A DNA stretch of 64,000 nucleotides from Ignavibacteriota bacterium. Lineage in GTDB: Bacteria > Bacteroidota > Ignavibacteria > UBA10030 > CAVZMI01. A model generated the notes under the pieces. It worked only from the letters and a program-made list of their open reading frames with translations, was not told where the DNA came from and did not search any database. Both the position numbers and the translations under genes were made by a program. Location: the NCBI GenBank assembly GCA_963776275.1, contig CAVZMI010000012.1, positions 1 to 64,000 of the forward strand, written 5' to 3'. Of the stretch, positions 46,416 to 63,300 are shown piece by piece; within the stretch, counting starts at the first letter, position 1; each line of letters begins with the position of its first letter.

Positions 46416-46578
46416 AGCACTACATATTGCATTATAATACGCGGTGTTGTTTTATTTTTATACATGACAAAAAGAAAATACCTTAATATGATCAACGGAA
46501 CAATCATTCTTATGCTATTGTTTTATACTATACAGAGGATACTTCAATTATCGTAGACATTTCTTGAGGTCAGATACA

Positions 46579-47775
46579 ATGCCTGACTACCAGTATCTTA
46601 TTGTAGGTGGTGGAATGACGGCAGATGCGGCAATCCGTGGAATACGGCAAACAGATCGCTCAAATCCAATCGGAATTCTCTCCAATGAAAAGCATCTTCC
46701 GTACAAACGCCCTCCTCTTTCAAAAGCGCTCTGGAAAGAAGAGCCCATAGAAAAAATCTGGCTCAGGACTCCGAAAGAGAATGTGGATATTTTTACGTCA
46801 AGGACAGTGACAAAAATCGACCCGAAGAGTCATACCGCCGTTGACGATCTGGGATTAATCTATTCATACAAGAAACTTCTCCTGGCGACCGGAGGAACGG
46901 TGCGCCGTTTACCATGGAACATCGATGGGATAATCTATTTCCGGACACTCGATGATTATTACTCGCTGAGAGAACTGGCGGCTGAAAGAAAGGACTTTGC
47001 CGTCATCGGTGGAGGATTTATCGGCTCGGAAATAGCTGCTGCTCTCACAATGAACGATCGATCGGTCACAATGATATTTCCGGAGGAGGGAATAGGATTC
47101 CGTCTCTTCCCGCCCGCGCTGTCCCGGTACCTGAACACACTCTATGAAACAAAAAACAATAAAGTACTTGCCAGCGACGGCGTCGTTAAAATCGGGAAAG
47201 AACATAATAAGTATGTTCTCACGACGACAAGTGGGAAGATTATCAAAGCCGACGGAGTCGTCGCAGGAATCGGTATCCAACCGAATATCGAACTGGCGCA
47301 AGCCGCCGGATTGGCTGTGGGGAATGGAATCATCGTCAACGAATTTCTGCAGACCAGTCAGCCCGATATTTATGCCGCGGGTGACGTTGCCAATTTCTAT
47401 AATCCCGCACTGGATAAACATATCCGACTCGAGCACGAAGACAACGCAATTATCATGGGCGAATATGCAGGAAGGAATATGGCCGGTGATATCGTCCGGT
47501 ATCACCATCTTCCGTTTTTTTATTCCGATCTATTTGAATTGGGGTACGAAGCGGTCGGCGAGCTCGATTCGCGATATGAGATGGTTGAGGATTGGAAAGA
47601 ACCGTACCGCGAAGGAGTCGTTTATTATCTGAATGAACAGCGTATCCGCGGAGTGCTCCTGTGGAACACATGGGGACAGGTAGACGCCGCGCGCAGTTTG
47701 ATAGCCGAAAAAGTGCCCGTTCACCCCGATCAATGTAATAGGGAGGTTGCCTGCATAAAACAGTCCCCCCTCTGA
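46579..47775 (+). CDS. FAD-dependent pyridine nucleotide oxidoreductase (ferredoxin-reductase/AIF-like)
   Basis: IVGGG, PY.RPPLSK, LLLATGG, IGGGFIGSE, IYAAGDVA, PFFYSDLF, GVLLWN; C-terminus apparently frameshifted near 47715. Confidence 0.9.
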   Translation: MPDYQYLIVGGGMTADAAIRGIRQTDRSNPIGILSNEKHLPYKRPPLSKALWKEEPIEKIWLRTPKENVDIFTSRTVTKIDPKSHTAVDDLGLIYSYKKLLLATGGTVRRLPWNIDGIIYFRTLDDYYSLRELAAERKDFAVIGGGFIGSEIAAALTMNDRSVTMIFPEEGIGFRLFPPALSRYLNTLYETKNNKVLASDGVVKIGKEHNKYVLTTTSGKIIKADGVVAGIGIQPNIELAQAAGLAVGNGIIVNEFLQTSQPDIYAAGDVANFYNPALDKHIRLEHEDNAIIMGEYAGRNMAGDIVRYHHLPFFYSDLFELGYEAVGELDSRYEMVEDWKEPYREGVVYYLNEQRIRGVLLWNTWGQVDAARSLIAEKVPVHPDQCNREVACIKQSPL

Positions 47776-47781
47776 GGGGGG

Positions 47782-47829
47782 CTTGACCTGAGTGAGTCCC
47801 GACGTTTTGTGTCGGGGCGAGTCGAAGGA
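47782..47829. repeat. 48-bp hairpin element (identical copy at 52725-52772; absent at the homologous site 56012/56013)
   Basis: CTTGACCTGAGTGAGTCCCGACGTTTTGTGTCGGGGCGAGTCGAAGGA. Confidence 0.85.
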
Positions 47830-47884
47830 TGGACGACCGAAGGTCGGCTGGGGTGTGTAAGATAGCGCATTACTACCACCTTAC

Positions 47885-48074
47885 TTGCTTTTTACCCGCC
47901 CTCTTCTTATACTCTTCGCAGTACCTCTCGAGATGCGATAAAGATATACGATTGGATATGCTTAACCGGTCATAGTTAAAAGAAATAAAAACGCTACCCC
48001 GATTTAAGGGGACTAATTCGTTGTACGGTAAAACTGTACCGCTACGCGGTATTGCGTTGTTATACGAATTAGCT
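47885..48074 (+). promoter_or_regulatory. Module copy 1: sigma70 promoter, leader and attI-like site
   Basis: TTGCTT-N17-TATACT (47885-47913); ends CGGTATTGCGTTGTTATACGA-ATTAGCT, where homology to the other copies stops. Confidence 0.65.
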
Positions 48075-48135
48075 GCCATTGCCCTTTGAACTTACTTAAA
48101 AATAACCGACTAAATATTTCTTAAAAGGTAAGACT

Positions 48136-49944
48136 ATAAAAAGGAACTTAATAATCACTATAGTAATATATTTACTTGTTCTTATACCTTCAAGAGCAAG
48201 CGAATCCACTAACATGCTTAATCTGTATGACATTCGAGGTAGGTTCGTCGGCAGTATTGGTAATCCCAATTCGTTTACCACAATTCAAGCTCTTGTGACG
48301 CCGTCTCCTATCAAGGTTATGTACAACAACCAAATTCTTAACATTGCCACCGGTTTTTACTATGCAATTCCTTCAAAACTTGATACGATGTCGGTAAAAT
48401 CATTTTTGAGTAAGGGATTTGGTTTTGAAGACGTAACCTCGTCTTTTCTCCCTTCTCAACAGTGGGATGCCGTGGACATTGCGACCTTCAACGTCAATCG
48501 TGACGGGAAGGAAGATATCATATTTTCATTGAACAGAGTCTACTGTGATAGTATTACCGATAAGCGTCCTCGTGTTTGGGTGCAAACCGATCAAGGACAG
48601 TTTGTCGACGAAACCGAAATGAGAATTCCCCCGGGTCGATACGCAGCAGATCAAATTATCCTTTTCGATTGCGACAACGATAGCGATATCGATATCTTCT
48701 TGACAGGCTGGGGCTGTAACGATGGATTTCCTTCGGCCACCCTGCTCATAAACAACGGTGCGGGGGTCTTTACAGATGAATCCATTACTCGACTTCCATC
48801 ATCTCATTTGATATACTCGGCGGCCGTAGGACAAATCGATAACAATATATCACCTGATCTTCTAGTGGTCGATTGGACTCCGACTGAGCCGACAACTCGC
48901 CAATTTGCTCATCCATTGGTATGGCTTAATAATGGGAATGGTGTTTTCACTCTTGACACCCTGGGTAGATTTAAAGAAAGCGACTATGGTTACTTCATTC
49001 CCATAATAGTCGACGTTAATAAAGATACACACAATGACGTCGCTTTTGCAAATATGAAAGTGTACATTACCCAAAACGACCCTACTCCGAGAGACTCGCT
49101 CAGTGGTCAAACTGCTCTTTATATTAACAATGGTGAAGGGTTCTTCGAAGACGAAACAGCGGAACGTATTCCTTCCGAGCTCACGTCAAGTACACGTAAG
49201 TTGGCCAACGCGGATATAGATCGAGACAACGACGAAGATTTAGTCCAGATTATATACCAATCGAACCCCGAGAGTTCTTATTGCAGACTTCTTTTGAATG
49301 ATGGTACCGGACACTTTTCAGTTGCACCTAACGCCTTCGGGGAGAATATCGCCGGCTGGTTCAACGATGTCGTCATTGGTACGTTGAACGACGATCAGTA
49401 TCCGGATATGTTTTTACCCAGAGTAATACCTGGCCAGGTTTACTACGATGTTCTTCTGATCAACAATGGAAATGGTTCATTCTCCGATTCCAGCTCTCTT
49501 CTTCCATCAGGCGCGGATTTCAGTACTGCCGCTGCCTTCTTTGATCATGAAAATGACGGCGATGAGGATATAATTATCGCCAATTGTGGTCCTCGCGTTG
49601 ACACGACAGGTCAAAATGTTTTATACCATAACACATTATATACTAGTGTAAGTGTCCATAATGATGAACCGGCGGCCCCAAAAGAATTCCGATTATGGCA
49701 GTGTTATCCCAACCCGTTCAATCCAACTACTAATATTTCATTTAGTATCCCCCAAAATTCTCTCGTTTCATTAAACATTTTTGATCTTTTGGGAAGCGAA
49801 GTTGCAAAATTGATCAACGAAGAAATGTCGACTGGAAGCTACTCTAAGCAATGGAATGCGGAAGGATTGCCAAGCGGCGTGTATTTTTGTCGATTGCAGG
49901 CAGGTTCCTTTGTGGCTTCAAAGAAATTAGTTTTATTACGATGA
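48136..49944 (+). CDS. FG-GAP/VCBS repeat protein with T9SS C-terminal domain (cassette)
   Basis: Repeated D.D.DGD.D and L.NNG.G.F motifs; YPNPFNP...KKLVLLR; signal peptide in frame from an ATA at 48136 (first ATG at 48214). Confidence 0.85.
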   Translation: MKRNLIITIVIYLLVLIPSRASESTNMLNLYDIRGRFVGSIGNPNSFTTIQALVTPSPIKVMYNNQILNIATGFYYAIPSKLDTMSVKSFLSKGFGFEDVTSSFLPSQQWDAVDIATFNVNRDGKEDIIFSLNRVYCDSITDKRPRVWVQTDQGQFVDETEMRIPPGRYAADQIILFDCDNDSDIDIFLTGWGCNDGFPSATLLINNGAGVFTDESITRLPSSHLIYSAAVGQIDNNISPDLLVVDWTPTEPTTRQFAHPLVWLNNGNGVFTLDTLGRFKESDYGYFIPIIVDVNKDTHNDVAFANMKVYITQNDPTPRDSLSGQTALYINNGEGFFEDETAERIPSELTSSTRKLANADIDRDNDEDLVQIIYQSNPESSYCRLLLNDGTGHFSVAPNAFGENIAGWFNDVVIGTLNDDQYPDMFLPRVIPGQVYYDVLLINNGNGSFSDSSSLLPSGADFSTAAAFFDHENDGDEDIIIANCGPRVDTTGQNVLYHNTLYTSVSVHNDEPAAPKEFRLWQCYPNPFNPTTNISFSIPQNSLVSLNIFDLLGSEVAKLINEEMSTGSYSKQWNAEGLPSGVYFCRLQAGSFVASKKLVLLR

Positions 49945-49956
49945 ACGTGCAACTGC

Positions 49957-50059
49957 ACATAATAGATAGCGGGCACTACGACGTGAAGAACACTCAAGCC
50001 CGCAGTCATTTACAAAAGTTTTGGTATACGGGACTGCGTAGTGCCCGCACACGTTAATT
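49957..50059 (+). other. attC-like recombination site
   Basis: ACATAAT..GCGGGCACTACG ... CGTAGTGCCCGC-ACAC-GTTAATT; 12-bp perfect arms just after the stop codon. Confidence 0.7.
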
Positions 50060-50161
50060 TTAAATTTGCCAGCCCATCGAGTAAACCAGCTATGTCCAAA
50101 GTTGTCTAAACGTGTTTGATGCGTAGAAAAGAATGTTTTGAACAGAGGAGGCTTCTTTATC

Positions 50162-52337
50162 ATGAGACCTTGTTTTTGCTTTTTTGTCTCCTTGCTCGTT
50201 TCAACCTCCGCCATCTGGGGGCAAAGCCAGTTTACCGCGTTTGTCGTGGATAGCACGAGCGGAGAACCGATTGCGGGTGCAAACGTGTTGGTGACTGGCA
50301 CTAATTTGGGCGCAATGACGGACACAATTGGTAAAGTGACGATTGCGGGGATTCCAAATGGCCCGCAGAAAATAATTATTTCCTGCGTCGGTTACAAAAC
50401 TCGTGCGCTCGTGATTGATTTCCCTTTAGCCGAAGCAACACAAACCATCCAGGTGACGCTGAGCCAGACAAATATTGAGCTTGAAGAAGTGACCGTGACC
50501 ACCGCGAGGACGAGTTACCATCTTTACGACGCGCCTGTGCGCATTGAAGTCAAGGGAGAAGAAGACATCGGCGAGACAATGATCGACCATCCTTCAAGCA
50601 TCTCGGAACTTTTTCTAGAATCAACAGGGATACAGGTTCTGCAAACGTCGGCGGTATCGAACTATGTCAGCATCAAACTTCAGGGACTTGACGGAAGTTA
50701 CACTCAAATACTTAAGGACGGTTTTCCACTATACGGAGGACTTTCAGCTGGATTAAGCGTAACACAAATTCCACCACTTGACCTGAATCGAGTTGAGGTA
50801 GTGAAAGGCTCCATCATCCTCACTCTATGGTGGTGGCGCGATTGCGGGAATCATCAATCTAATCTCGAAGAAGCCAGCCGAAAATGGACAACTCACGTTC
50901 CTTCTTAACGGAACCAGCTCGCTCGGAATTGATGCCGGCGCATTTTACTCGAAACAAGGGGACAATACAGGTTTTACTATGCTTCTTAATGGGAACGTAA
51001 ACGCTGCATACGATGCTGATCAAACCGGTTTTTCTGACATTCCAAACAGGAAGCTCTTAACCATCAATCCAAAAATCTTCTATAATCTCAATGACGACAC
51101 AAAAATTATGTTTGGGCTTTCCACGACCTATGAGAATCTAACGGGCGGTGATATGACAGCGCTGAGAGATGGGGCAAGCACTTTTCATCCATACATCGAG
51201 AAGAGCAAGTCAAATCGGTCATATACGCAATTGGAATTGACCTCCCTCCTGGGTGGTGCTTCGATCAGTTTCAAGAACAGCATCGGCTATTTCTATTTGA
51301 GCAGGTCGCTGAAGTCGGACCGTTTTGAAGGAACACAGTGGACCAGTTATACTGAATTCTCAGCACAGATGAAATTGGGTAAGCATACTTTGACCGGCGG
51401 ACTGAATTTGACTACAGAGAGTTTCTCTGATAATCCGGTGTACAGCGGCGTGGACAGAAGCTTCGGTCGATGAACCGCAGGTCTGTTCGGACAAGACGAT
51501 TGGCAGATCGCTTTGCCATTCACTTTGGAAACGGGTTTGAGAGTCGATCGGGAAAATCTCTATGGTTTTCAGTTGGTGCCACGGATTGCGGGAATATACC
51601 GTCTCAGCGATGAAGTCGGACTCAGGGCAAGTGCTGGACTGGGATACAAAGTGCCGACAATCTTCTCCGACCAGTCGGATCCAGACGTAATCTATAAACT
51701 CAATCCGGTCGGAAGCAATGTTACAGTAGAGAAATCTATAGGTGGGGAGTTTGATTTTACTTACAAGGTCATAGCTTTCGGAGAAATGTCCCTCATTCTC
51801 AATCAGGCATTTTTCTACACGCGGGTTAACAATCCCATCCTGCTGACTGCCGAATCAACACCTGCCAGCTTGTCTCTGGCAAATGCGAATGGATACCTCT
51901 TTAGTAGGGGAGCCGAAACGGATATTAAAATCGCTTACGGTGACTTGGAGGCGTTTATCGGCTACACATTCACGGATGCCCAAAAAAGATTTTCCGAATC
52001 ACACGGTGAGCTTTTCTTAGCGCCCCCTCATAAATTTGTGATGGACGTTTTGGTCGACCTGGAAGAGTTCGGCGAGGGTGGCATCGAACTTCGTTATATT
52101 GGTCGCCAGCTTCTTCATGATGGAACGAAGTCGCCTGAATTTTGGGTGCTTGATATCTTGTTTCAAAAGAAATTCTCGCATTTCACATTTTTTGTTGCAG
52201 TCGAAAACCTGTTGAGTTACAAGGAGGCAAACTATGCTCCAGTTGTTACAGGCGGCAGCGTGAACCCGCAATTCAACGATGTGTGGGCACCGCTCGAAGG
52301 ACGTGTCGTGAATGCAGGGTTGAAATTTCAGATGTGA
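50162..52337 (+). CDS. TonB-dependent receptor, frameshifted near 50810 and 51470 (cassette)
   Basis: GEPI.GANV, GLDG.YTQIL.DG, RVEVVKG, C-terminal WAPLEGR...G.KF. Confidence 0.85.
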
Positions 52338-52385
52338 AACTGAAGCTCAGGGATTGAATAAATAACCAATGGGCCGGCAAACTTC

Positions 52386-52450
52386 AGCTAACGACACAAA
52401 CCACGATCCCGATAAAGAACATCGGGACAGGCACTCGCTTTGTTGAGAAG
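52386..52450 (+). other. Left half of an attC-like site with a 25-bp hairpin insertion (52407-52431)
   Basis: AGCTAAC core; 52369-52392 is partly complementary to the cassette start at 50053-50077; no right arm found. Confidence 0.6.
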
Positions 52451-52614
52451 GAGTATGGTTCGACAAGTGATATTTTAGAAAGATATGTCGGGACATATAT
52501 GAGGTCAGATATTAACAGATTTAATATTTATGTCACATGAGAAATAATATTTTAGCACGAAATTATCGAAGAAGTGCAATAGCACCTTTTTTTATAATAC
52601 AGGTTTTATTTTTC

Positions 52615-53066
52615 TGGGGACAAGTAGACGCCGCGCGCAGTCTGATAGCCGAAAAGGGTCCGTTCACCCCGATCAATGTTGTCGGGATGTTACCTGCATA
52701 AAACAGTCCCCTCTCTGAGGGGGGCTTGACCTGAGTGAGTCCCGACGTTTTGTGTCGGGGCGAGTCGAAGGATGGACGACCGAAGGTCGGCCGGGGTGTG
52801 TAAGATAGCGCATTACCACCACCTTACTTGCTTTTTACCCTCGCTCTTCTTAAACTCTTCGCAGTACCTCTCGAGATACGATAAAGATATACGATTGGAT
52901 ATACTTAACCGGTCATAGTTAAAAGAAATAAAAACGCTGTTCAGATTTATCGCGACTACTTCGTGGTACGGTGAAACAGTCCCGCTTCGCCGTCCTAAAG
53001 GACTGCTACGCTGAGCTCAGCGAGGCGAGACCGTTTCACGGTATTGCGTTGTTACATGAGTTAGTT
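52615..53066 (+). repeat. Module copy 2: oxidoreductase 3' fragment, REP, promoter and attI-like site
   Basis: Homologous to 47671-48074; TTGCTT-N17-TAAACT (52828-52856); ends GTTACATGA-GTTAGTT. Confidence 0.9.
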
Positions 53067-53100
53067 GCCATGCTTCTGAAGAAAAGGAGGAGTGATTACT

Positions 53101-53985
53101 ATGAACATGAAATTCCACATCCACTGTGCGCTTTTATTCTTGCTAGTCATCCCCTGCTATGCTTCTTGTCAACAGAAAGATATGGCAAAAGCGCGCATTG
53201 TACTTCAGACAAATTCAATGAACAATGTCATCATCAAACGGGGCGTTGTATATCGTACCGCTGGAAAAGTTTCACTTTCAATGGACTTATATTACCCAGC
53301 GAGTATAGATCGCTCTGCCAACTATCCCCTCGTAGTCTTTGTATTCGGCTTTCCCGATACCGTTATGTACAAGATGATCGGCACGAAGATGAAGGATATG
53401 GGTCAGTATGTTTCTTGGGCGCAACTCATAGCTTCATCTGGACTTGCTGCGCTGACATACGAAACACTCGATCCTGCATCAGATATTAAGAACGTCATTC
53501 AATATGTTCGAGCCAACGCTTCCGCTTTGCAAATCGACGCAAGTAGAATCGCACTCTGGTCTTGTTCAGGCAATGTTCCAACGGCGTTGTCTTTCCTGAC
53601 TAAGCAATCGAATGACTACCTCAGGTGTGTGGTTTTCTACTATGGGATCACACTGGAACTCCCGGGTTCGACCAAGGTTTCTGAATTAGTAACCAAGCGT
53701 GGATCAACATTTCCAGCAATCCTGAACACACCTGACACGTTGAGGTGGGATGTCCCGACCTTCTTAGTAAGAGCAGGGCTCGACAACGTCCCATATCTCA
53801 ATGAGGCGCTCACTCGCTTCATTACTCTCGCGATATCCAAGAATGCACCACTGCACCTTCACAATTTGCCTAACGCTCAGCACGGTTTCGATGTCTGGGA
53901 TAACAACGATAACTCGCGTGACACCATCGAACGTACAGTGGAATTTGTTAAGTATTATCTTCTATCACAGAAGCATGGCAACTAA
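53101..53985 (+). CDS. Exported alpha/beta hydrolase (cassette)
   Basis: Signal peptide; MDLYYP, PLVVFV, ID.SRIALWSCSGN, HGFD; stop codon lies inside the AACTAAC core. Confidence 0.85.
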   Translation: MNMKFHIHCALLFLLVIPCYASCQQKDMAKARIVLQTNSMNNVIIKRGVVYRTAGKVSLSMDLYYPASIDRSANYPLVVFVFGFPDTVMYKMIGTKMKDMGQYVSWAQLIASSGLAALTYETLDPASDIKNVIQYVRANASALQIDASRIALWSCSGNVPTALSFLTKQSNDYLRCVVFYYGITLELPGSTKVSELVTKRGSTFPAILNTPDTLRWDVPTFLVRAGLDNVPYLNEALTRFITLAISKNAPLHLHNLPNAQHGFDVWDNNDNSRDTIERTVEFVKYYLLSQKHGN

Positions 53986-54111
53986 CAAGCGTGTTTACGA
54001 TGCTCACTTTTTATAGAAGTAATATTGTGTTCGCTCCATCCCGTTTGCCGCAAAATGAATTTGTTTATCATAGCGGTAAACGGGACGGCGTAAACACGCT
54101 AAACGCTAGTT
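53980..54111 (+). other. attC-like recombination site
   Basis: AACTAAC-A-AGCGTGTTTACG ... CGTAAACACGCT-AAAC-GCTAGTT, with an inner stem TCCCGTTTGCCGC/GCGGTAAACGGGA. Confidence 0.78.
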
Positions 54112-54273
54112 GCAATTTCCTCATACTCTTTATAAAAAGAGCACAAATTATGCGTGGGTTATTGTGCTTAATTTATTATGCATTTTTATTTCTTCAATAC
54201 TGACTGCCCAATGGATCCAAACCAACGGCTCCTATGGCGCGATTATTAACTGCCTCGTCGAAAGGAGAGCGCT

Positions 54274-55785
54274 ATGAACGTTCGATCTGTCTGCAGAGTC
54301 ATTGTGCTGCCTGCTTTACTGCTTTTCTCCAAGTCGGAGTCATTCGCACAGGACGCGATTGCGCACGCGGGACAACAACTCATCAACCGTATTTACCGAG
54401 GTTTTCAACAACCGAGCTACGATGGCTCTTTTGACTTCACGATTACTGAAATCGTGCATTGTTTCGAGATAGGCTACCTCAATGTCGCAATTGACTTGAA
54501 TGGAGATAGCACAATTGACAGCTACTCAATTATGGGTGGTGGGACTCAAAATGAGTGGATCATCCGGAATATTCCTATTTCAATGACGACCGAGATATTT
54601 TCTGAACCGACCATAAGCGTCTGGTTTGATTTCAGTGACAACATCCCGATTCCCAGTACGGCAGATTACGCAATGATCATTACTGAGCAACCGGTGTCTA
54701 TCACTATGCCAATACAAATTGAGAAACTTTCAACGTGGGATCGATCTACAGCGGACATTGTCGGCGCGGACTGGGGAACACTCGACACTATGGGTCAGAA
54801 TCTGATCGAGTTCGCGCCGGTAACACCGCCCACCATTGGTGCTGGTCCAGTCATGTTGGAAAATCCTGGTCCGGGAGATAGCCTCGGTGTTCCCGACATA
54901 GCCCAGAAACTGAATGAGTGCGGCCCGACTTCAGCGGCCAACTCTTTGATTTGGTTGGCAAAAAAAAACAAATTCACCGACAAGCTACCCAAAAAGCAAG
55001 ACGGTTCCCTGGACACCAACCAGGTGATTCTGGACCTGATGAAAGCAATGACAGGATCTAACGCTCGCCCCTTTGGAGGAATACAGGAGAATCAGTTGTT
55101 TACAGGGAAGGAACAGTACATTCAGAATAAATCGCTGCCGTTATCAGTTGAGGGCGGCAAGTTGGACACGAATGCGCGAGGTGCAAAGACCTATGATTTC
55201 ATGGTGAAGCAGCTCACGAAGGGACAGGATGTCGAACTCCTAATTTTGTGGCCTGGTGGTGGTGGACACTGTGTTACTGTGACAGGTTATGCAATTGCTC
55301 TTGGAAGGGCATTTGTTTTCGTGCACGACCCAGACGACAAGAAAACCGCGAAAGTGGTCTGGGAATTCGCCGTCGATGGTACTGGCAGGGTCACCGGAGA
55401 CATTACTGCACCAAGGGCGTGCAAAGCGGCGTGGGCTGTCGCTGAATCGCCTAGTCCTGACGTAGGCATTGAAGCGCTGCCAAGTTTGCCGAAAGGGTTC
55501 GCGCTTTATGACAACTATCCGAACCCGTTCAATCCATCAACAATAATTTCTTTTGATCTACCGACACGATCATTTATATCGTTGAAGGTATTTGATTTGA
55601 TAGGAAGAGATGTGGCAACAATTGTCTCTGAAGAATTACCGGAAGGCAAATACACACAGCAATGGAATGCGGCAGGATTTCCAAGCGGAGTATATTTTTA
55701 CCGTTTATCCGCCTATCCTCTGGAAAGTCGAGACAGGCAGGCAGGTAAATTCACCGAGACGAAGAAACTTATTTTACTCAGATAG
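54274..55785 (+). CDS. Secreted papain-fold (C39-like) peptidase with T9SS C-terminal domain (cassette)
   Basis: Signal peptide; Q...ECGPTSAANSL, GHCVTVTG, HDPD; YPNPFNP...TKKLILLR. Confidence 0.75.
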   Translation: MNVRSVCRVIVLPALLLFSKSESFAQDAIAHAGQQLINRIYRGFQQPSYDGSFDFTITEIVHCFEIGYLNVAIDLNGDSTIDSYSIMGGGTQNEWIIRNIPISMTTEIFSEPTISVWFDFSDNIPIPSTADYAMIITEQPVSITMPIQIEKLSTWDRSTADIVGADWGTLDTMGQNLIEFAPVTPPTIGAGPVMLENPGPGDSLGVPDIAQKLNECGPTSAANSLIWLAKKNKFTDKLPKKQDGSLDTNQVILDLMKAMTGSNARPFGGIQENQLFTGKEQYIQNKSLPLSVEGGKLDTNARGAKTYDFMVKQLTKGQDVELLILWPGGGGHCVTVTGYAIALGRAFVFVHDPDDKKTAKVVWEFAVDGTGRVTGDITAPRACKAAWAVAESPSPDVGIEALPSLPKGFALYDNYPNPFNPSTIISFDLPTRSFISLKVFDLIGRDVATIVSEELPEGKYTQQWNAAGFPSGVYFYRLSAYPLESRDRQAGKFTETKKLILLR

Positions 55786-55794
55786 GGCAACTGA

Positions 55795-55820
55795 AACTAA
55801 CAGTTGTAATTTCGCCAACG
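55795..55820 (+). other. Truncated left half of an attC-like site
   Basis: AACTAAC 9 bp after the stop codon, matching the cassette start G(C)TAGTT at 54105; abuts module copy 3. Confidence 0.5.
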
Positions 55821-56137
55821 TTGGAAAGAACCGTATCGCGAAGGAATCGTTTATTATCTGAATGATCAGCATGTTTGCGGAGTGCTCCTGTGGAATACAT
55901 GGGGACAGGTAGACGCCGCGTGCAGTCTGATAGTTGAAAAATGTCCGTTCAACCCAATCAATGTTGTTGGGAGATTACCTGAAAAAAAAGTCCCCTCTCT
56001 TATAGAGAGGGGTGGACGACAGAAGGTCGGCCGGGGTGTGTAAGATAGCGCATTACACTCCCACCCCCATACTTGCTTTTTACCCCCGCCCTTCTTATAC
56101 TCTTCGCAGTACCTCTTGAGATGCAATAAAGATATAC
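55821..56137 (+). repeat. Module copy 3: longer oxidoreductase 3' fragment and promoter; attI-like end missing
   Basis: Homologous to 47592-47949; TTGCTT-N17-TATACT (56073-56101). Confidence 0.9.
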
Positions 56138-56192
56138 AAACAATTGTTTTGAACAATAGATGTTGCTGGGAAAATAATAATAAGGTATTAAA

Positions 56193-56474
56193 ATGTATGA
56201 CCGCATTCTTCACCGAATGAAAGAAAAAATTCGCACCCGGCAATATGTCATGACGATTCACGCCGAGGAGGAGAAGGATGCAGATGGATTGGGTATTTTG
56301 GATGTTGAAAACTGTATCCTGACGGGACAGATTGTGGGGCGATAGAAAGATAAAGTTACCTCAGAATGGAAGTACCGCATCACGGGTAAAAGTATGTCCG
56401 GGCATAGAATGGAGTTAATTGTTAAAATTAGTCCAACTGGAAAATTGGTAATAATTACAGTATATTTATCTTAA
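56193..56474 (+). pseudogene. DUF4258-type putative toxin with an internal TAG
   Basis: MYDRILHRMKEKIRTRQYVMTIHAEEE...LTGQIVGR*KDK...KLVIITVYLS; TAG at 56343-56345; not in the ORF track. Confidence 0.75.
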
Positions 56475-56496
56475 TAGACAAAAGCAGAAATATATT

Positions 56497-56724
56497 ATGA
56501 AATGTGACATTTGCGGCAAAGACGGTGCGAAAGTAAGACGGGTGGCTCGCACCTACGGCAAAGGGAAACGATTGTTAGTCATCGAGAATGTGCCTGTAGT
56601 GTCGTGTCCTAACTGTGGTGAAAGCTACTTGACTGCTGAGACCCTTCATGAAATAGAGCGACTCAAGGCACATCAGAAAAGTCTGGCCTCAGAACGACGG
56701 GTACGGACTTTAGCATATGCCTAG
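56497..56724 (+). CDS. YgiT/MqsA-type zinc-finger protein (putative antitoxin)
   Basis: MKCDICG...VIENVP...CPNCGESY. Confidence 0.85.
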   Translation: MKCDICGKDGAKVRRVARTYGKGKRLLVIENVPVVSCPNCGESYLTAETLHEIERLKAHQKSLASERRVRTLAYA

Positions 56725-56761
56725 GACCCGCGTTGACTGAGCGTAGCACGCTGTACTTCAA

Positions 56762-56851
56762 TCCCGCTTCCCGTTCATGGGAAGCGGGACTTTCTGTCAC
56801 TTTCTTTTTCTAAAAGAAAGTGACACTTGTGTCGAGCATCAGTCGAGACAC
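56762..56851. repeat. Compound hairpin block (copy at 59365-59454; partial copy at 57181-57215)
   Basis: TCCCG.TTCCCGTTCATGGGAAGCGGGA-CTTTCTGTCACTTTCTTTT..AAAAGAAAGTGAC-ACTTGTGTCGAGCATCAGTCGAGACAC. Confidence 0.9.
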
Positions 56852-57030
56852 TAGTGCCTTGGCAACCATTAAATTTTACAAATGAGTTTGTTTTTGTGGA
56901 GGAGATGCTTCTATATTGTTTTTTCCATAGTAAAAAAATCCTCGAGGACAAAATCGCTGGAGCGCGGCGGGAAGAAGGGGGGGCGTGTGTAGGCGCCATT
57001 TTGTGCGTTTCGATCGAGGCATATGGAAAG

Positions 57031-57454
57031 ACATATAATAAGGCCGAGATCGACGGATTCGCGATTGCCATTTTAATAGCGTGTGAAGGAGGCCACTTCA
57101 CGCGGGTTGCGATTTTGTCAGCGCATATTAACGAACTTAGAATTTATTACCAGTGCGCAGTACCTTTAGGTGCAGGCTTTCTTTCTGTCACTTTCTTTTC
57201 CTAAAAGAAAGTGACCCCCTACCCCCATACTTGCTTTTCACCCCCGCTCTTCTTATACTCTTCGCAATACCTCTCAAGATACTATGAAGATGTACAATTG
57301 TATATACTTAACCGGTTACAGTCAAAAGAAATGAAAACGCTATCCCGATTTATGGGGACTACTTTGTGGTACGGTGAAACAGTCCCGCTTCGCCGTCCTA
57401 AAGGACTGCTACGCTGAGCTCAGCGAGGCGAGACCGTTTCACGGTATTGCGTTG
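57031..57454 (+). repeat. Module copy 4 with an alternative upstream segment shared with copy 5
   Basis: 57031-57110 resembles 59243-59325; TTGCTT-N17-TATACT (57231-57259); ends CGGTATTGCGTTG. Confidence 0.88.
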
Positions 57455-57483
57455 CTTGCGGTGTTTAGGAGATCGTTAAGGAC

Positions 57484-58311
57484 ATGATCGCATACCTCAT
57501 CTTGGTGCATCGGTATCCCGGCCAGTTCAAAAGACTCTTTAGGGCAATTTACCATCCCGCCAACTACTACTTGGTACATGTGGATAAGAGATCAGGCATT
57601 GGATTACAGACGGAGATACAAGATTTCTTGTCAAGCTTTGCCAACGCATCCTTGCTGAAAAGCCAAAGCACTCTTTGGGGGGGATACAGCCTGGTAGATG
57701 TTGAATTACGAGGCATCGAGGAGTTATTGAAGATCGGCTCGGAATGGGAATTCTTCATAAACCTTAGCGGACAGGATTTCCCACTAAAGTCGCAGACGCA
57801 CATCCAAGACTTTCTTAGTCGCAATATAGGAAACGATTTCATCAGGGTGGCTAACCAGAGCAAGATACGCCCTGATACACTATCTCGAATCGAGAACTAC
57901 TGTATCGAATTTAGCAACAGGATACTACGCACTTTTATCAAGCGACCGTATCTTCGAGGCGTGACGCCTTATATCGGAAATCAGTGGATGATCTTTAGTA
58001 GGAAGTTCTGTGAATATATATGCTGCAGCCCTGAGCTCGAAAGGTTCAAGAGATTCTATCGGCACACCTTCATATCTGATGAAGGATTCTTTCAGACGGT
58101 AATAATGAACACTAGCTACAAGGCAACTATCGTGAACGACGATAAAAGGACAATTGTGTGGGTGCCGATGGGAACAATAAAGTTACGTCCGAGAGACTTC
58201 ACATCCAAAGACGCCGAATTCTTGCTAGCAAGTCAAGGCTTGTTTGCCCGCAAATTCGACGAAACCGTTGATGCAGGAATCTTGAGTATATTGGAGTCGA
58301 ATCTATCGTAG
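57484..58311 (+). CDS. Core-2/I-branching beta-1,6-N-acetylglucosaminyltransferase (GT14) (cassette)
   Basis: IAYLILVH, HVDK, WGGYSLV, INLSGQDFPLK, G.QW..SR, DEGFFQT, LFARKFD. Confidence 0.9.
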   Translation: MIAYLILVHRYPGQFKRLFRAIYHPANYYLVHVDKRSGIGLQTEIQDFLSSFANASLLKSQSTLWGGYSLVDVELRGIEELLKIGSEWEFFINLSGQDFPLKSQTHIQDFLSRNIGNDFIRVANQSKIRPDTLSRIENYCIEFSNRILRTFIKRPYLRGVTPYIGNQWMIFSRKFCEYICCSPELERFKRFYRHTFISDEGFFQTVIMNTSYKATIVNDDKRTIVWVPMGTIKLRPRDFTSKDAEFLLASQGLFARKFDETVDAGILSILESNLS

Positions 58312-58336
58312 CCATTTTAACTTATCACGAAGGGCG

Positions 58337-58475
58337 GGCTAACACGCGGCTGGAGCCGACCGCCGGAGCGTACGGGTTTAGAGACTTTGGTGCATTCTTC
58401 ACCGCAACGCAACGAACACATAACAACCAAAACACCGACGCTCAATCTTCCCGCCAGAAAGCGGCGGGACACAGA
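58337..58475 (+). other. Two left-half attC-like remnants
   Basis: GGCTAAC-ACGCGGCTGGAGCCGACCGCC at 58337 and ACATAAC-AACCA at 58418, the latter followed by a TCCCGCC...GGCGGGACA hairpin. Confidence 0.5.
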
Positions 58476-58527
58476 AAACGTGTTTGATATGAATTTGCGC
58501 CACTAGAAGGTATGAGTGACGGGTGGA

Positions 58528-58836
58528 TTATGCCATCATACGGGAGAGTGTTCTTCGCGATGCTCCAAGAGTCAACAATGAACGAATAAGCAAATCCAAT
58601 GAAACCGATGGATCGCCCGATTCCATTTTCGCTACTCTTGACTGGCTGGATTTTATCATCTTCGCGAGTTTTTCTTGTGTTATTTTTTTCTGTCGACGGG
58701 TATTCTGAAGATTCTTACCCAACAATAATTTCAACTCGACATAAGCAACTTCTTCCGGTGAAAGGTTCAAGAATTCTTTTGCATCTCCAATCACCCAGCC
58801 TTTATTTTCGAGACGTTTTTTCTTATTATTATTCAT
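58528..58836 (-). CDS. XRE-HTH antitoxin (HigA-like)
   Basis: TQEKLAKMIKSSQSRVAKMESGDPSVSLDLL. Confidence 0.88.
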   Translation of the reverse strand: MNNNKKKRLENKGWVIGDAKEFLNLSPEEVAYVELKLLLGKNLQNTRRQKKITQEKLAKMIKSSQSRVAKMESGDPSVSLDLLIRSLLTLGASRRTLSRMMA

Positions 58837-58851
58837 GGTTATACTCCATTT

Positions 58852-59181
58852 TTAGTTATCATACACTCGCATTCTACGCTTACAATTATCAATAACGCTT
58901 TTCGGAGTGCGCTGTGCTTTCTTCTCAAATACTTCCAATATCACAATTGCATCCGGATCAATTCGATATACAATGCGCCAGATTTTTTCTCGATCATTTA
59001 TTCGTAGTTCATGACACCGTACACCTATTCCAGGCATCGGTCGCGAATGGGGTAATGTCAGATGAATACCCATTTGGAGCTGTCGTAATAAATACCCAGC
59101 ATCAATACGAGCAGCGCTAGATAACGGCGGAGTTTTTATCTCGCCGTGTAACCAAACGATCGGTTTATCATGACTTTTCAT
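58852..59181 (-). CDS. RelE/HigB-like (Gp49-type) toxin
   Basis: LPHSRPMP.IG..CHELRI...WRIVY, F.KK.Q.TP; toxin-first order. Confidence 0.88.
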   Translation of the reverse strand: MKSHDKPIVWLHGEIKTPPLSSAARIDAGYLLRQLQMGIHLTLPHSRPMPGIGVRCHELRINDREKIWRIVYRIDPDAIVILEVFEKKAQRTPKSVIDNCKRRMRVYDN

Positions 59182-59189
59182 GCATGTTC

Positions 59190-59218
59190 AATATATGTCA
59201 TTTTTGACATAATGTCAA
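59190..59218 (-). promoter_or_regulatory. Toxin-antitoxin promoter with an overlapping palindromic operator
   Basis: Minus strand TTGACA-N17-TATATT; TATGTCA-N4-TGACATA palindrome overlapping the spacer. Confidence 0.8.
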
Positions 59219-59242
59219 ATAAGTAGTGCGTTATTTTGCGAC

Positions 59243-59608
59243 ACATATAATAAGGCCGAGATCGATGGATTCGCGGTTGCCATCGCAACAGCGCGTGAAG
59301 GAAGCCACATCAAGAAGCGGGTTGCTGGGCCAGAGGCCCATCCGCCTTTGGCGGAGATTTTGTCTCCCGATTCCCGTTCATGGGAAGCGGGACTTTCTGT
59401 CACTTTCTTTTTTTAAAAGAAAGTGACACTTGTGTCGAGCATCAGTCGAGACACCACCCCCATACTTGCTTTTTACCCCCGCTCTGCTTATACTTTTCGC
59501 AGTACCTCTCGAGATACGATGAAGATGTACGATAGTCAAAAGAAATAAAAACGCTATCCTGATTTATAGGGGCTACTTCGTGGTATTGAGTTGTTACGTG
59601 AGTTAGCC
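59243..59608 (+). repeat. Module copy 5: promoter, shortened leader and attI-like site
   Basis: TTGCTT-N17-TATACT (59466-59494); ends GGTATTGAGTTGTTACGTGA-GTTAGCC. Confidence 0.88.
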
Positions 59609-59639
59609 ACCATTGGTCACTTTGGAAGGGATAATCTCG

Positions 59640-60137
59640 ATGGAAACTATACAGAGCCAGTCATCAACCCTGATATCAGGATGGAGTATTTCTATTCCTG
59701 TTTCAACATACCTTCTTTATTGTGCAATGGTATCTGTTGCAGTAAGGATAGTTCTGTCTACTTTCAAGGCCCTCGCAATCTCCGGCGGTGAGCACTTGGA
59801 CGCAAGTGATATGACTCCTTCCAAAGCCGGGGACAATTCTATTATTGATGCATCTTTTGGCAAACGGTGGTTGACTGCTTTCTGGGGATTCTCAAGTCAT
59901 AGGAATATCCGGGACTATTGGCTACCTGCGATCATCGGGTTCTGCGAAATGGCTGCATACCCTGTGTTGCTTTTCACGAACGAAGCTGCTGTGATAGGCG
60001 GTTGGCTTGCCATCAAAACAGCTGGACAGTGGGGCGTATGGGAGAGATCACGCACTGCTTTCAATAGGTTCCTCGTCGGAAACCTGGTGGTGCTTGCCAT
60101 TTCGTTCTTCTGGTTACTTCGATACATTTCACGGTGA
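59640..60137 (+). CDS. Hypothetical membrane protein (cassette)
   Basis: Several hydrophobic segments; IG..E, GGWLA.KT, R..FN.FL.GN. Confidence 0.7.
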   Translation: METIQSQSSTLISGWSISIPVSTYLLYCAMVSVAVRIVLSTFKALAISGGEHLDASDMTPSKAGDNSIIDASFGKRWLTAFWGFSSHRNIRDYWLPAIIGFCEMAAYPVLLFTNEAAVIGGWLAIKTAGQWGVWERSRTAFNRFLVGNLVVLAISFFWLLRYISR

Positions 60138-60155
60138 TTGAACGTGACCAACGGC

Positions 60156-60287
60156 AGCTAACACCGAAAAACTACGACATTCACTTTGTCGATAGTATTG
60201 AGTTGAGTTCACTCCACACTTTTGCTCACATCGAATGAATCATTAATAGTTCGCAAAAGTACGGCGTAGTGCTTACACACATTGTGC
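60156..60287 (+). other. Degenerate attC-like site
   Basis: AGCTAAC..ACTACG ... CGTAGT..ACAC-ATTGTGC; shares the ACGA..TCACTTT and ACGGCGTA motifs with the 53980 site. Confidence 0.62.
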
Positions 60288-60344
60288 GCAATGCCTGCAT
60301 TAAGAAAAAGAGTTAGAGTTCAATGTAGAAATAACGAGATTACC

Positions 60345-63300
60345 ATGAAAATAAATCTGGCCATTTTTATTGCCTCAATATTTTTATTATTGTTTCCAAA
60401 GCTTTTGTTTGCACAATCCCTGGTTGACCCTGTAACAGAGGAAGAAATCAATCTTGTGAAAAGTTTTGCTAATGAAATATGTCCTAGCCTTTCTTATCCT
60501 TGGTGCCAGCTTCTCACAATTACTGACCATCTTGAGGATATAAAAGATATAATTGAAAATGCCGTGAAAATTAAAGAGATTGCCCAAATACAACGTGAGA
60601 CAAATTCTGGTGAAAGGTTTGAAAATTGTAACAGATACAATAGAGGTGTTCAATTAATTTTTTACCTCTGGCAAACGTCAGTCAAATCTGTTCCACAACT
60701 ATTTCCTCTAATAGGAATAGAAGCTTCTGAATTGGCTTCGGCAACTCTTTCTGCATCAATTTTTCAGGTTTCAATGGTGTGGGAGGTACAGCGTACAGTA
60801 TTATCTCATGGGATTAATAATTTAAAAGGTGGTTTACAACTATATGATTTCGCTATTTATGAAACAAATATACTTTTTGAGGATGTAAGTAATGGTGGAT
60901 TTGATATTGCAGAGCAGGCATTGATCAATGACTTTGAGTTGCATGCATGGCCTCATCAAGCGAATGCGGGTAACGTTTCGTACCCGGGAGTGGATACCCA
61001 CAGCGTCTATGAATGGCAGCATGGTTCGGCTTCAATACGATATAGTCGAATTATAACTTTCAACGGCATGATAGATAATGTAGCACAATTTGTATTCTCA
61101 TTATATTTTTACAACTCAAGCAGTAGTGATCTTAATGATAGTGTTTTTATTGCATTGGTCGATGACAATGGCAATATAATAACCGGATTGAAAGAGAGAC
61201 TCCCCATATGGCAGTTTACTGCGAAATCCTTCGGAAACGATGCTAATTTTCAGAAAATATCTCTCCCTTTTTATATTCCGATGATTGAAATGGCGAAATT
61301 TTCTAATAATGGAAGAGTGAAAATTGATTTTGGATATAATGGTATTGAGGATAATAGTGTGTCTCTTGCTTTGCCTAAGATTCAATCGAATATGGTTGGG
61401 CTGACGATTCATGCAACGAAAGGTCGGCAAGCGAGTGTAACATTTAATATATCTTGCGGTGGAAGTAAAAACGCAGGAGATATAAGATCCTATCCATTCA
61501 ACGTTAGAAAAAATAACTCGTTACTTGCTGATAGCTGGTTTGCACAATCATCACCACTTAAGGATTTAAAATTGGGTGAAACAAGATGGGTAACGATTTT
61601 TATCAATGTTCCAAGTGATGCGGAAACAGGTAGCTATCAAGGTGAATATATAGCAGAGGCTTCTGGAGGAGGAATTCTTTTCCTGCCAACCAATATAACA
61701 ATATCACAAGATAATGTAGAACCAGGGACGATTACAAATCTCCAGGCACAAACTGGAGGAAAGGGAGAAATAAAACTTTCTTGGACTGCATCGGGAGATG
61801 ATGGATACTTGGGTAAAACAACTTCCTATACATTAAAATATTCAACGAACTTTTTAAACGAATCAACTTGGAATAGTGCGATAGAAGTATCAGCACCTCC
61901 CACACCTCAATCAGCTGGTAGCAGTGAATCATTCTCTATAAGTAACTTAACACCGGCTCAACTTTATTATATTGGCATCAAAGCAAAAGATGCTGCTGGC
62001 AACTTTTCTAGTCTGTCCAATATCACGAGTGCAAACGCTGGAATAAATCCCGCTGAAGATACTGTGCATGTAATTATTCCTACTGGCGGTGATAGCAGCT
62101 CGTATACTCTAAAATTTGATTGCGTTGATCTCAATCAAGTTTCCTATTTTACGCTTGGATACGATAATGACACAAACAGTTCAACTTACCATAACATCGT
62201 ACAATGGCAAACACAAAGTGCAACTGTCTGTAGTTATTCTTGGGATGTAGGTTCTGTGCCAGAGGGAAATTATTATATTCTTTCGATAATATCAAAGCCT
62301 GCGTCTCCGCAAGCTATTGTAAAGTACAGTCAGACGAAGATAACGATAAGCCATGGCAACGATAGCAGTTATGAACCGAATGACGACATAGAGCATGCCT
62401 GGGGGCCTATCGTAAGTGGAGAGAATATTTATTCCATGTTATCGATCGTGAATGATAGGGATTACTTCTATTTTTGGCCAGGATCAAATACCCACATAAG
62501 TGGCTTACTCTTTATTCCAGTTGGAAGTCAATACGATGCTAGTATTATGAATACAGGTACTACAATTAACAATACCTCAACTTACCATAATAATGGTAAT
62601 TACGTAGACTTTAGTGCCGATGTTGTAAATAATGTCTCAGGACCTGTCTATGTGGGAATAAGTCCGATCCTCCCATTTGGTCCAACATCCCAGTACAGAA
62701 TAATAGTAAATTGTACTTCAAGAGTTTTTCAACCATCTTGTTATGCAATAGTAAATATAACAAGTCCGACCCATTGGCAAAAAACATTACCATTTACTAT
62801 AGACATCCATTCTTTAAATAACGATGCTGTGAAGTTCGATATTCAATATCGAGATGATTTAGATAATGATTGGCATTTCCTTTATACAAGATTAGACCCA
62901 ATATCAGCCCAAAGAAAGCCATTCCTTTTTGCACTTGATGGACACAATTATCATTTTCGAGCGCGGGGGATTGATCCGATTGGTGGCGAAGGCCCGTTTA
63001 CCGAGTCACCTTTTGGAGTTGTCACAATTGATCTGACTCCTCCAACTTCTGCCGTCGATCCATTAAAAGAATTTCAAACACAACCAAATTTTCCTGTGTC
63101 GTGGAAAGGCTCGGATGCAACATCTGGTATTATGAGTTACAAAGTTCAATATCGAAAGAATGATGGAGGCTGGGTAGATTGGATAATATCAACTTCTGAT
63201 ACTGTGAGAACTTTCGGGATTTCTGTTGATGCATCTATGAAATACAATGACAAATATGATTTTCGTTCAATAGCAGCGGATTCTGCTGGCTGGGCTGAGA

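Follow-up and report, generated by a model that had tools for sequence, protein, structure and literature searches.

Modules and cassettes at the locus

We analysed a stretch of 64,000 nucleotides (nt) from the genome of an Ignavibacteriota bacterium (the window), in which a non-coding module recurs among co-oriented genes that end in folded sites resembling attC, the recombination site of integron gene cassettes. From about 47.6 kb onward this stretch probably forms an integron-type cassette array with promoter/attI-like modules interleaved. Coordinates are those of the whole window, and the contig from which it was taken, C12, has the same numbering; the array extends beyond 60290 and the window end, to C12 65210. 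It is flanked by an oxidoreductase gene and a Fib_succ_major gene, and a PEP-mutase gene also lies past C12 65210. The window's own genome (G000) was compared with a same-genus genome (G001) and a sister-genus genome (G002). The features of the locus are collected in Table 1.

A repeat search of the window recovered an 81-nt module core in five in-register copies, at 47872, 52815, 56060, 57218 and 59453, which are 84-94% identical to the reference copy. A regular-expression search for the promoter-like element TTGCTT-N17-TA[AT]ACT returned exactly five matches in the window (47885, 52828, 56073, 57231 and 59466), so that both searches agree with the five promoter-bearing copies described in a first-pass annotation of this DNA. 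The modules measure 150-300 bp, and in four of the five an attI-like site lies about 60-90 nt 3' of the promoter. Modules 1, 2 and 5 extend to GGTATTG(C/A)GTTGTTA-N-(G/A)TTAG, with unrelated sequence beyond; homology had been reported to end at this point, and it does, bar about 8-10 weakly similar bases past GTTAG (CTGCCATTG / TTGCCATG / CCACCATTGG). Copies 3 and 4 had both been described as cut short before it. This description fits module 3, whose homology ends early, near 56137, but not module 4, which retains the entire site to GGTATTGCGTTG and diverges after it (CTTGCGGTGTTTAGG); the site model described below matches module 4 end to end (57318-57474, 55 bits). Within its own genome the full-length module is confined to the C12 locus. 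A diverged sixth module, at C20 316880-317021, has kept promoter and site, with an attC 0.86 kb downstream.

The left border is different in each module copy and consists of gene remnants, truncated attC stubs or hairpins. In modules 2 and 3 the 3' end of the upstream oxidoreductase gene survives as remnants (52615-52703 and 55821-55989) whose starts differ, corresponding to 47671 and 47592. Because the left borders differ in all copies, the duplication was not site-specific, though later insertions at the copies were. Tandem integration of islands at the 3' end of the oxidoreductase gene was considered and rejected: the remnants start differently, and no integrase or att duplication fits. A terminator scan placed terminator-like hairpins upstream of modules 4 and 5. 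Two 35-nt hairpin copies, 97% identical (56790-56824 and 57181-57215), bracket a 356-bp segment between the terminator block and module 4; because module 5 adjoins the same hairpin block directly, this segment looks like an insertion or duplication scar. A separate hairpin element at 47781-47834 (GAGTCCCGACG...GTCGGGGC...), which recurs as short matches in about a dozen places in G000 and G001, may be a repetitive extragenic palindromic (REP)-like repeat.

The cassettes end, as the first-pass annotation had it, in attC-like hairpins or half sites: full sites stand at 49957-50059, 53980-54111 and 60156-60287, and truncated 5' stubs at about 52511 and at 55795. In cassette B, the Pfam domains CarbopepD_reg_2/Plug and TonB_dep_Rec_b-barrel fall on separate open reading frames (ORFs), the middle ORF having no match, and the TonB-dependent receptor gene (50138-52337) is probably a frameshifted pseudogene within its cassette. 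The MqsA-like gene behind module 3 matches Pfam MqsA_antitoxin at E 1e-5, under the gathering score; reading the ORF upstream of it as a DUF4258-type toxin was dropped, as it has no Pfam support. An Rfam scan of 44-64 kb at E<=1 returned only a chance snoRNA match.

Table 1. Features of the locus in window coordinates (C12 numbering where they lie beyond the window). R1, model of attC-like sites; R2 and R3, models of attI-like sites; T9SS, type IX secretion system.
Feature	Position	Strand	Details
Left flank, pyridine-nucleotide disulfide oxidoreductase gene	46564..47775	+	Pfam Pyr_redox_2 E 1e-49; 93% nt identity to G001 C9 45568-46748
Module 1	47885..48080	+	promoter-like TTGCTT-N17-TATACT 47885-47913; attI-like 47972-48080, 91.5 bits
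Module 1 ends	L' 48054-48061; R' ATTAGCT 48068-48074	+	
Cassette A	48075..50059	+	FG-GAP / T9SS-tail protein gene 48214-49944 (Pfam); attC-like 49957-50059
Cassette A attC-like site	49957-50059; R' GTTAATT	+	R1 37.8 bits, E 8e-7
Cassette B	50060..52614	+	TonB-dependent receptor gene as three ORFs, 50138-50908, 50979-51473, 51513-52337
Cassette B truncated attC stub	about 52511 onward (TATTAAC-A-...)	+	read from sequence
Module 2	52615..53072	+	oxidoreductase 3' remnant 52615-52703; promoter-like 52828-52856
Module 2 attI-like site	52915-53072; R' GTTAGTT 53060-53066	+	88.2 bits
Cassette C	53067..54111	+	alpha/beta hydrolase gene 53092-53985 (Pfam); attC-like 53980-54111
Cassette C attC-like site	53980-54111; R'' AACTAAC, perfect complement of module 2 R'	+	R1 80.3 bits; 7/7
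Cassette D	54112..55820	+	C39-like / T9SS-tail protein gene 54274-55785 (Pfam)
Cassette D attC stub	from 55795, AACTAAC-A-GTTGTAATTTCGCCAACG, ending 55820	+	read from sequence
Module 3 (truncated)	55821..56137	+	oxidoreductase remnant 55821-55989; promoter-like 56073-56101; no attI-like site
Short ORF with in-frame stop, then MqsA-like antitoxin gene (56497-56724)	56193..56724	+	directly behind module 3
Terminator-like hairpin block	56762..56851	+	98% repeat at 59365-59454, directly 5' of module 5
Module 4	57231..57474	+	promoter-like 57231-57259; attI-like 57318-57474, diverged L'/R' end; 55 bits (R2), 73.9 (R3)
Core-2/I-branching glycosyltransferase gene behind module 4	57484..58311	+	Pfam Branch E 5e-39
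Toxin-antitoxin pair	58528..59181	-	Gp49/HigB-like 58852-59181 (Pfam Gp49); 102-aa partner 58528-58836; 94% in G001 (blastn)
Module 5	59466..59614	+	promoter-like 59466-59494; attI-like 59532-59614, R' GTTAGCC 59602-59608; 95.5 bits
Cassette E	59609..60287	+	174-aa ORF 59613-60137; attC-like 60156-60287
Cassette E attC-like site	60156-60287; R'' AGCTAAC; R' ATTGTGC	+	R1 54.6 bits; 6/7 to module 5
Cassette(s) F	60288..64000, beyond window	+	1326-aa fn3 / T9SS-tail protein C12 60282-64262; 195-aa ORF 64462-65049
Cassette(s) F attC-like site	C12 65094-65210	+	R1; cassette F missing from G001 at same point

Site families, cassette cores and a recombinase elsewhere in the genome

A pattern scan for RYYYAAC...stem...GTTRRRY, with shuffled sequence as control, gave 10 attC-type matches against 4 and 0 in two shuffles; a second version of the scan gave 10 against 1, 1 and 1. 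The 11 seed sites have a common 12-bp L''/L' stem with compensatory changes in 11 of its 12 pairs, flanked by TAAC...ACGTTA; between the R and L boxes, one base on the 5' side and four on the 3' side stay unpaired. The arrangement is the attC one, R''(RYYYAAC)-L''...L'-R'(GTTRRRY), conserved in structure and variable in sequence. A covariance model from the genome's own attC-like repeats (R1) returned 40 matches in that genome at E<=1, 37 of them at E<0.01, which form co-oriented arrays on C23 (11 strong, 1 weak), C32 (7 strong, 1 weak), C22, C7, C18, C34 and C20. On C12 the attC assignment held up under this model: R1 finds the three full sites of the window and a fourth at C12 65094-65210, all on the + strand and just 3' of ORFs, and with its filters off it found no additional site in 44-64 kb. 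One attC-like stem at the locus has four pairs broken. The four sites are spaced 3.9, 6.0 and 4.8 kb apart, on a contig with no integrase; since the default clustering distance for a cluster of attC sites lacking integron-integrase (CALIN) is 4 kb, default CALIN clustering might split the locus.

The attI-like site of the modules is laid out differently: AAAAACGC closes an A-rich left arm, and a variable hairpin insert separates this arm from GCGTTGTT-N6-GTTAG. A site of this kind, present in four of the five modules, also adjoins the stop codon of an IntI-related recombinase gene, both on C23 and in the sister genus. On C23, the recombinase stop codon lies inside AACAACGC-TATATA-GCGTTGTT-GCAAAT-GTTAGTT, and the module ends align with that site through the common left arm (...AAATAAAAACGC) and GCGTTGTT-N6-GTTAG, with hairpin inserts between. 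The genome holds five matches to G[CA]GTTGTT-N6-[GA]TTAG: three in modules, one on C23 and one on C34. The attI-like sites were located with a fuzzy pattern, a strict regular expression having given no match. A model of them (R2) matched 12 sites in the own genome, 11 in G001 and one in G002; by our reading of the matches, an attC in the same orientation follows within 3.5 kb at 10 of the 12 own-genome sites. A leave-out model built from five module sites only (R3) recovered the sites on C34 and C20 at E about 1e-5 and that on C23 at E 0.005, and its sole match in G002 ends one base from an IntI-like orthologue that heads about 25 attC sites. The end of the module, which had been likened to attI at first pass, is thus homologous to sequence beside an IntI-like gene in two genera. 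Recombinase-site homology and an R' complementary to the first R'' are the two features by which attI-type sites were defined in this analysis, and both were found.

A second upstream module type (...cttcccacatac..gatgatgaatc.atatagatttt...) stands with attI-like sites at G001 C21 18623-21707 and at G000 C8 803-954 / 17911-17963. In G001 C21 two such units lie in tandem, each followed by a cassette with a 7/7 attC core.

An integron cassette has complementary cores at its two ends. In the own genome, the R' of a site and the R'' of the next attC match at 7/7 in 13 of 31 consecutive pairs. Matches at the three variable positions number 59 of 93; shuffles give 40.3 +/- 4.8, and none of 5000 attained the observed value. 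From an attI-like site to its first attC, the match is 7/7 for C23, C22, C7 45279 and module 2 (GTTAGTT/AACTAAC), 6/7 for module 5 and C20, 5/7 for module 1 and C7 36728, and 4/7 for C34; the head site of G002 scores 7/7, as do three sites in G001, with one more at 6/7. Cassette boundaries at G|TT with complementary end cores were therefore found, and this complementarity supports the earlier proposal that crossovers would fall at the module GTT.

No tyrosine recombinase was found on contig C12, and hence none in the window, as had already been noted, by PF00589 and TIGR02249 profile searches of the genome; the seven PF00589 and nine TIGR02249 matches all lie outside C12. On C23, a gene at 235649-236584 encodes a 311-aa recombinase and is followed on the same strand by 11 attC sites. 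Its best NCBIfam match is the integron integrase family TIGR02249 (237.7 bits, cut-off 265), against 178 for XerC/XerD, and its closest solved relative is VchIntIA (2a3v). In an alignment to 2a3v, residues 184-204 of the protein, 21 in all, replace VchIntIA residues 179-239, which indicates that it lacks the IntI-specific domain. In IntI, the residues that recognise extrahelical bases belong to this domain. The proposal of an integrase acting in trans or now lost thus gains an IntI-related candidate on C23, though the missing domain makes a canonical IntI identity doubtful. Homologues of the C23 recombinase are plentiful in metagenome-assembled genomes labelled Ignavibacteriales, Ignavibacteria or Bacteroidota, where they are annotated as tyrosine recombinase, XerD or 'tyrosine recombinase/integron integrase'. 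The family is common in the order: 49 of the 121 genomes searched have an IntI-like protein at E<=1e-40.

Two further copies of this gene are incomplete. At C22 9512-10782 lies a second IntI-like copy, 98% identical over 268 aa and followed by the same first cassette as on C23; a 127-aa ORF, which we take to be GIY-YIG-like, displaces the 3' end of this copy. Strain variation, duplication or the insertion of a homing endonuclease could account for it. At G001 C19 46500-46802, an IntI-like remnant in which the 5' leader runs directly into roughly the final 100 bases adjoins an attI-like site and an attC, and G001 seems to have lost the recombinase by internal deletion.

The module promoter resembles others in the genome. 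TTGnnn-N16-18-TAnnnT occurs upstream of 22 of 46 tRNA genes, where shuffled sequence gives 8.4 +/- 2.6. TTGCTT also serves as a first hexamer in these tRNA-gene promoters; on this pattern the organism is predicted to use sigma-70-type promoters. TTGCTT-N17-TAWACT occurs 16 times in the genome, against about one expected by arithmetic, and one copy precedes the recombinase gene by about 200 nt. A promoter of this type with a leader motif (YYGAGATRYGRYAA...TACG) is also present at C15 57547, 60608 and 64128 (minus strand), before genes with signal-peptide-like starts. Two of these genes have Pfam matches of T9SS cargo (CBM9, Sortilin/BNR, Por_Secre_tail), and the third (161 aa) has none. Model searches gave no attC or attI-like match at the C15 copies, which may represent a regulon-type promoter and leader for secreted proteins. 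The promoter half thus looks like a general element, joined in the modules to an attI-type site.

G001 keeps both flanks of the array, the oxidoreductase gene at 93% identity and the Fib_succ_major and PEP-mutase genes. Its locus has three modules and, between the flanks, mostly other genes (a Sortilin/BNR T9SS protein, an M20 peptidase, EVE, an N6-methylase and others); four R1 sites give four regular cassettes behind the third module. Of the genes in the C12 array, G001 has just the toxin-antitoxin pair, along with short pieces. A 4.9-kb segment with the giant protein is missing in G001, its borders lying inside the seven-base R' of an attC. The expectation that related genomes would carry different cassettes behind the module is borne out by these orthologous modules, which are followed by other cassettes. 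Pattern scans of metagenomes and genomes for further module variants returned the G001 contig only, and one metagenome contig is 100% identical to G001 over 12,037 bases. In G002, the oxidoreductase was the only one of the flanking genes matched within 16 kb.

Interpretation of the array and alternatives

Taken together, these results make it probable that the region from 47.6 kb to C12 65.2 kb is a chromosomal integron-type cassette array without an integrase of its own, in which promoter/attI-like modules are interleaved with the cassettes. This reading draws on what was computed: the site families, their homology, the complementarity of cassette ends and the turnover relative to the sister genome. 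We infer the promoter activity, the acting recombinase and current activity as follows. Genes would be stored as cassettes ending in attC-like folded sites of the genome's own family; the IntI-related recombinase encoded on C23 would recombine circular cassettes into the G|TT of any module; and each module would transcribe the one or two cassettes behind it, so that the array would offer five promoter-proximal positions instead of one. A standard integron has one attI and one cassette promoter (Pc), and expression falls with distance from it; most cassettes of large arrays are therefore silent. Instead of a single attI and Pc beside intI, the locus has four attI-like sites, five promoter-like elements and no adjoining integrase. 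The earlier idea of a multi-attI, multi-Pc platform is upheld to that extent, with module 3 lacking a site and the promoters being predicted ones.

Several findings weigh against this reading. The left borders of the modules, with oxidoreductase remnants and truncated attC stubs, are unlike clean site-specific events. The R' of module 1 begins with ATT rather than GTT, the end of module 4 has diverged, and three of the four attC sites at the locus have an altered core triplet (GCT, ATT, TTT); complementarity is just 5/7 for module 1 and 3/7 from 60156 to 65094. No integrase with the IntI-specific additional domain stands beside the array, and the C23 recombinase itself is without about 40 residues matching that domain. 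In G001 no IntI-like recombinase was found at E<=1e-40, though attC arrays are kept there. A DNA search found the module in only two of 201 genomes of the order, the own genome and G001. A generic sigma-70 scan of the window missed the module promoter, since TTGCTT agrees with TTGACA in only three of six positions, and the promoter/leader without att sites on C15 means that the promoter half is not array-specific. The mutated cores and the pseudogenes suggest that the array is decaying.

The same signs of decay are what an alternative would predict in which a decayed array head, comprising a gene end, a promoter and an attI-like site, was copied a few times by ordinary segmental duplication and the copies are inert. 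The oxidoreductase remnants with different left ends in modules 2 and 3, the mutated core triplets of module 1 and of the attC sites, the split TonB-dependent receptor gene and the ORF with an in-frame stop all agree with it, as does a sister genome that has no recombinase and has kept a deleted remnant. We nevertheless judge this explanation unlikely. Different cassettes with matching cores stand behind different copies (7/7 at module 2, 6/7 at module 5), orthologous modules in G001 are followed by other cassettes, and tandem attI-like units with 7/7 cores occur at G001 C21 behind a different upstream module. These observations indicate that insertions at the duplicated sites postdate the duplication.

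A module could also be a gene-less, promoter-bearing cassette whose attI-like site is an unusual short attC, as in Vibrio superintegrons. Promoter activity of gene-less cassettes has been published, according to portions of PMC11014356 and PMC6557892, and the C12 and G001 copies do pair CTAAT/CTACT... with ...(G/A)TTAG in an attC-like hairpin. However, R1 misses the module sites even with its filters off, and these have no R''/L'' arrangement of the local type. The left borders are not at an upstream R' but at gene remnants, truncated attC stubs or hairpins, so that neither bounds at two cores nor an attC of the local family was found, and the nearest relative of the site overlaps a recombinase stop codon. 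We regard this explanation as improbable.

Even less credence is due to the view that the modules are simply a promoter and a structured 5' leader common to co-regulated genes for secreted proteins at a hot spot of gene transfer, the module ends not being recombination sites. The promoter with leader motif YYGAGATRYGRYAA upstream of T9SS cargo genes on C15, without att sites, is in line with such a role, and several stem pairs are of the G-U type, fitting RNA. This view leaves unexplained both the homology with recombinase-adjacent sites in two genera and the cores that match downstream attC sites at 7/7. We also considered an array of polymorphic toxins or orphan modules and a riboswitch-like leader, and dropped these ideas given the attC family and the recombinase-adjacent site. 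An assembly artefact or chimeric contig is scarcely conceivable: the draft genome is in 38 contigs with 5.3% estimated contamination, but the copies differ by 6-25% and have different inserts, and the independent G001 assembly, itself matched by the 100% identical metagenome contig over 12,037 bases, has the same architecture.

Beyond the array as an integrase-less locus with interleaved modules, a wider picture can be put forward, tentatively and with some doubt on our part. It is that of a distributed integron, in which one co-oriented IntI-related recombinase without the IntI-specific domain, its attI overlapping its own stop codon, would serve many satellite arrays around the chromosome of an Ignavibacteria-type lineage. 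Portable promoter-plus-attI modules of at least three upstream types would seed these arrays and multiply inside them, so that cassettes could enter, ready for expression, at many points rather than one.

Relation to known integrons and further elements in the genome

With sedentary chromosomal integrons and CALIN elements the array has in common co-oriented ORF-plus-attC cassettes, a species-specific attC family, toxin-antitoxin cassettes, crossover at G|TT and the absence of an integrase at the array. It differs from them in having five promoter modules, four with an attI-like site, inside the array rather than one attI/Pc or none; in its large cassettes (up to about 4.9 kb), many of them for T9SS-secreted proteins; and in the unpaired bases of the stem, 1 (5') and 4 (3'). 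As in Treponema, to go by parts of PMC4889954, the C23 and G002 recombinase genes are co-oriented with and upstream of their cassettes, whereas here the attI-like site overlaps the recombinase stop codon and the IntI-specific domain is missing.

Sites derived from attI inside arrays, as possible recombination partners, are also a feature of the Delta-attI-type cassettes of mobile class 1/2 integrons, as far as the excerpted text of PMC12901181 describes them. In those resistance cassettes just part of attI1 or attI2 remains, at the 3' end, while the sites at our locus are repeated, full, accompanied by a promoter and chromosomal. Extra in-array promoters that restore the expression of distal cassettes are likewise described, in sections of the respective papers, for promoter-bearing gene-less cassettes of Vibrionaceae superintegrons (PMC11014356) and for ORF-less cassettes of oral Treponema (PMC6557892). 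There the promoters sit in ordinary attC-bounded cassettes, whereas at our locus promoter and attI-like site form one unit, which does not have a core at each end. The attI search of IntegronFinder, in the part of PMC4889954 that covers it, uses sequences of classes 1 to 3 only and exact matches only, and a portion of the IntegronFinder 2.0 paper reports complete integrons in Chlorobi and Ignavibacteriae. A literature search on multiple attI sites returned no paper with that phrase among the 17 that contained at least three of its four terms; the supplements of published papers may list Ignavibacteria integrons.

If the proposed organisation is correct, several modules that each combine a promoter with a docking site would avoid the distance limit, and incoming cassettes would be expressed at several positions. 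Integrase-less attC clusters could then keep attI-type sites that current tools overlook, and the domain regarded as essential for attC recombination may be dispensable to the recombinase of a cassette system.

Other elements related to the array were seen elsewhere in the genome. Three paralogous promoters (TTGCTTTTyAATTCGCArTT..TTATACTCC) lie at C23 236813, C18 208064 and C20 86796. The first is about 200 nt upstream of the IntI-like gene, and those on C18 and C20 head attC-linked gene sets, the C18 set including TIR (Pycsar-type), KaiC-like ATPase, RusA and Hjc-like genes. At C34 29791-34983, a cassette unit is interleaved with tRNA genes, its attI-like site (30226) lying about 360 nt after a tRNA-Ala gene and its attC (33759) just after a tRNA-His gene. 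On C12 itself, past the array, an IS200-like Y1 transposase ORF (68567-69103) lies within a segment, about 68081-69514, that has no match in G001.

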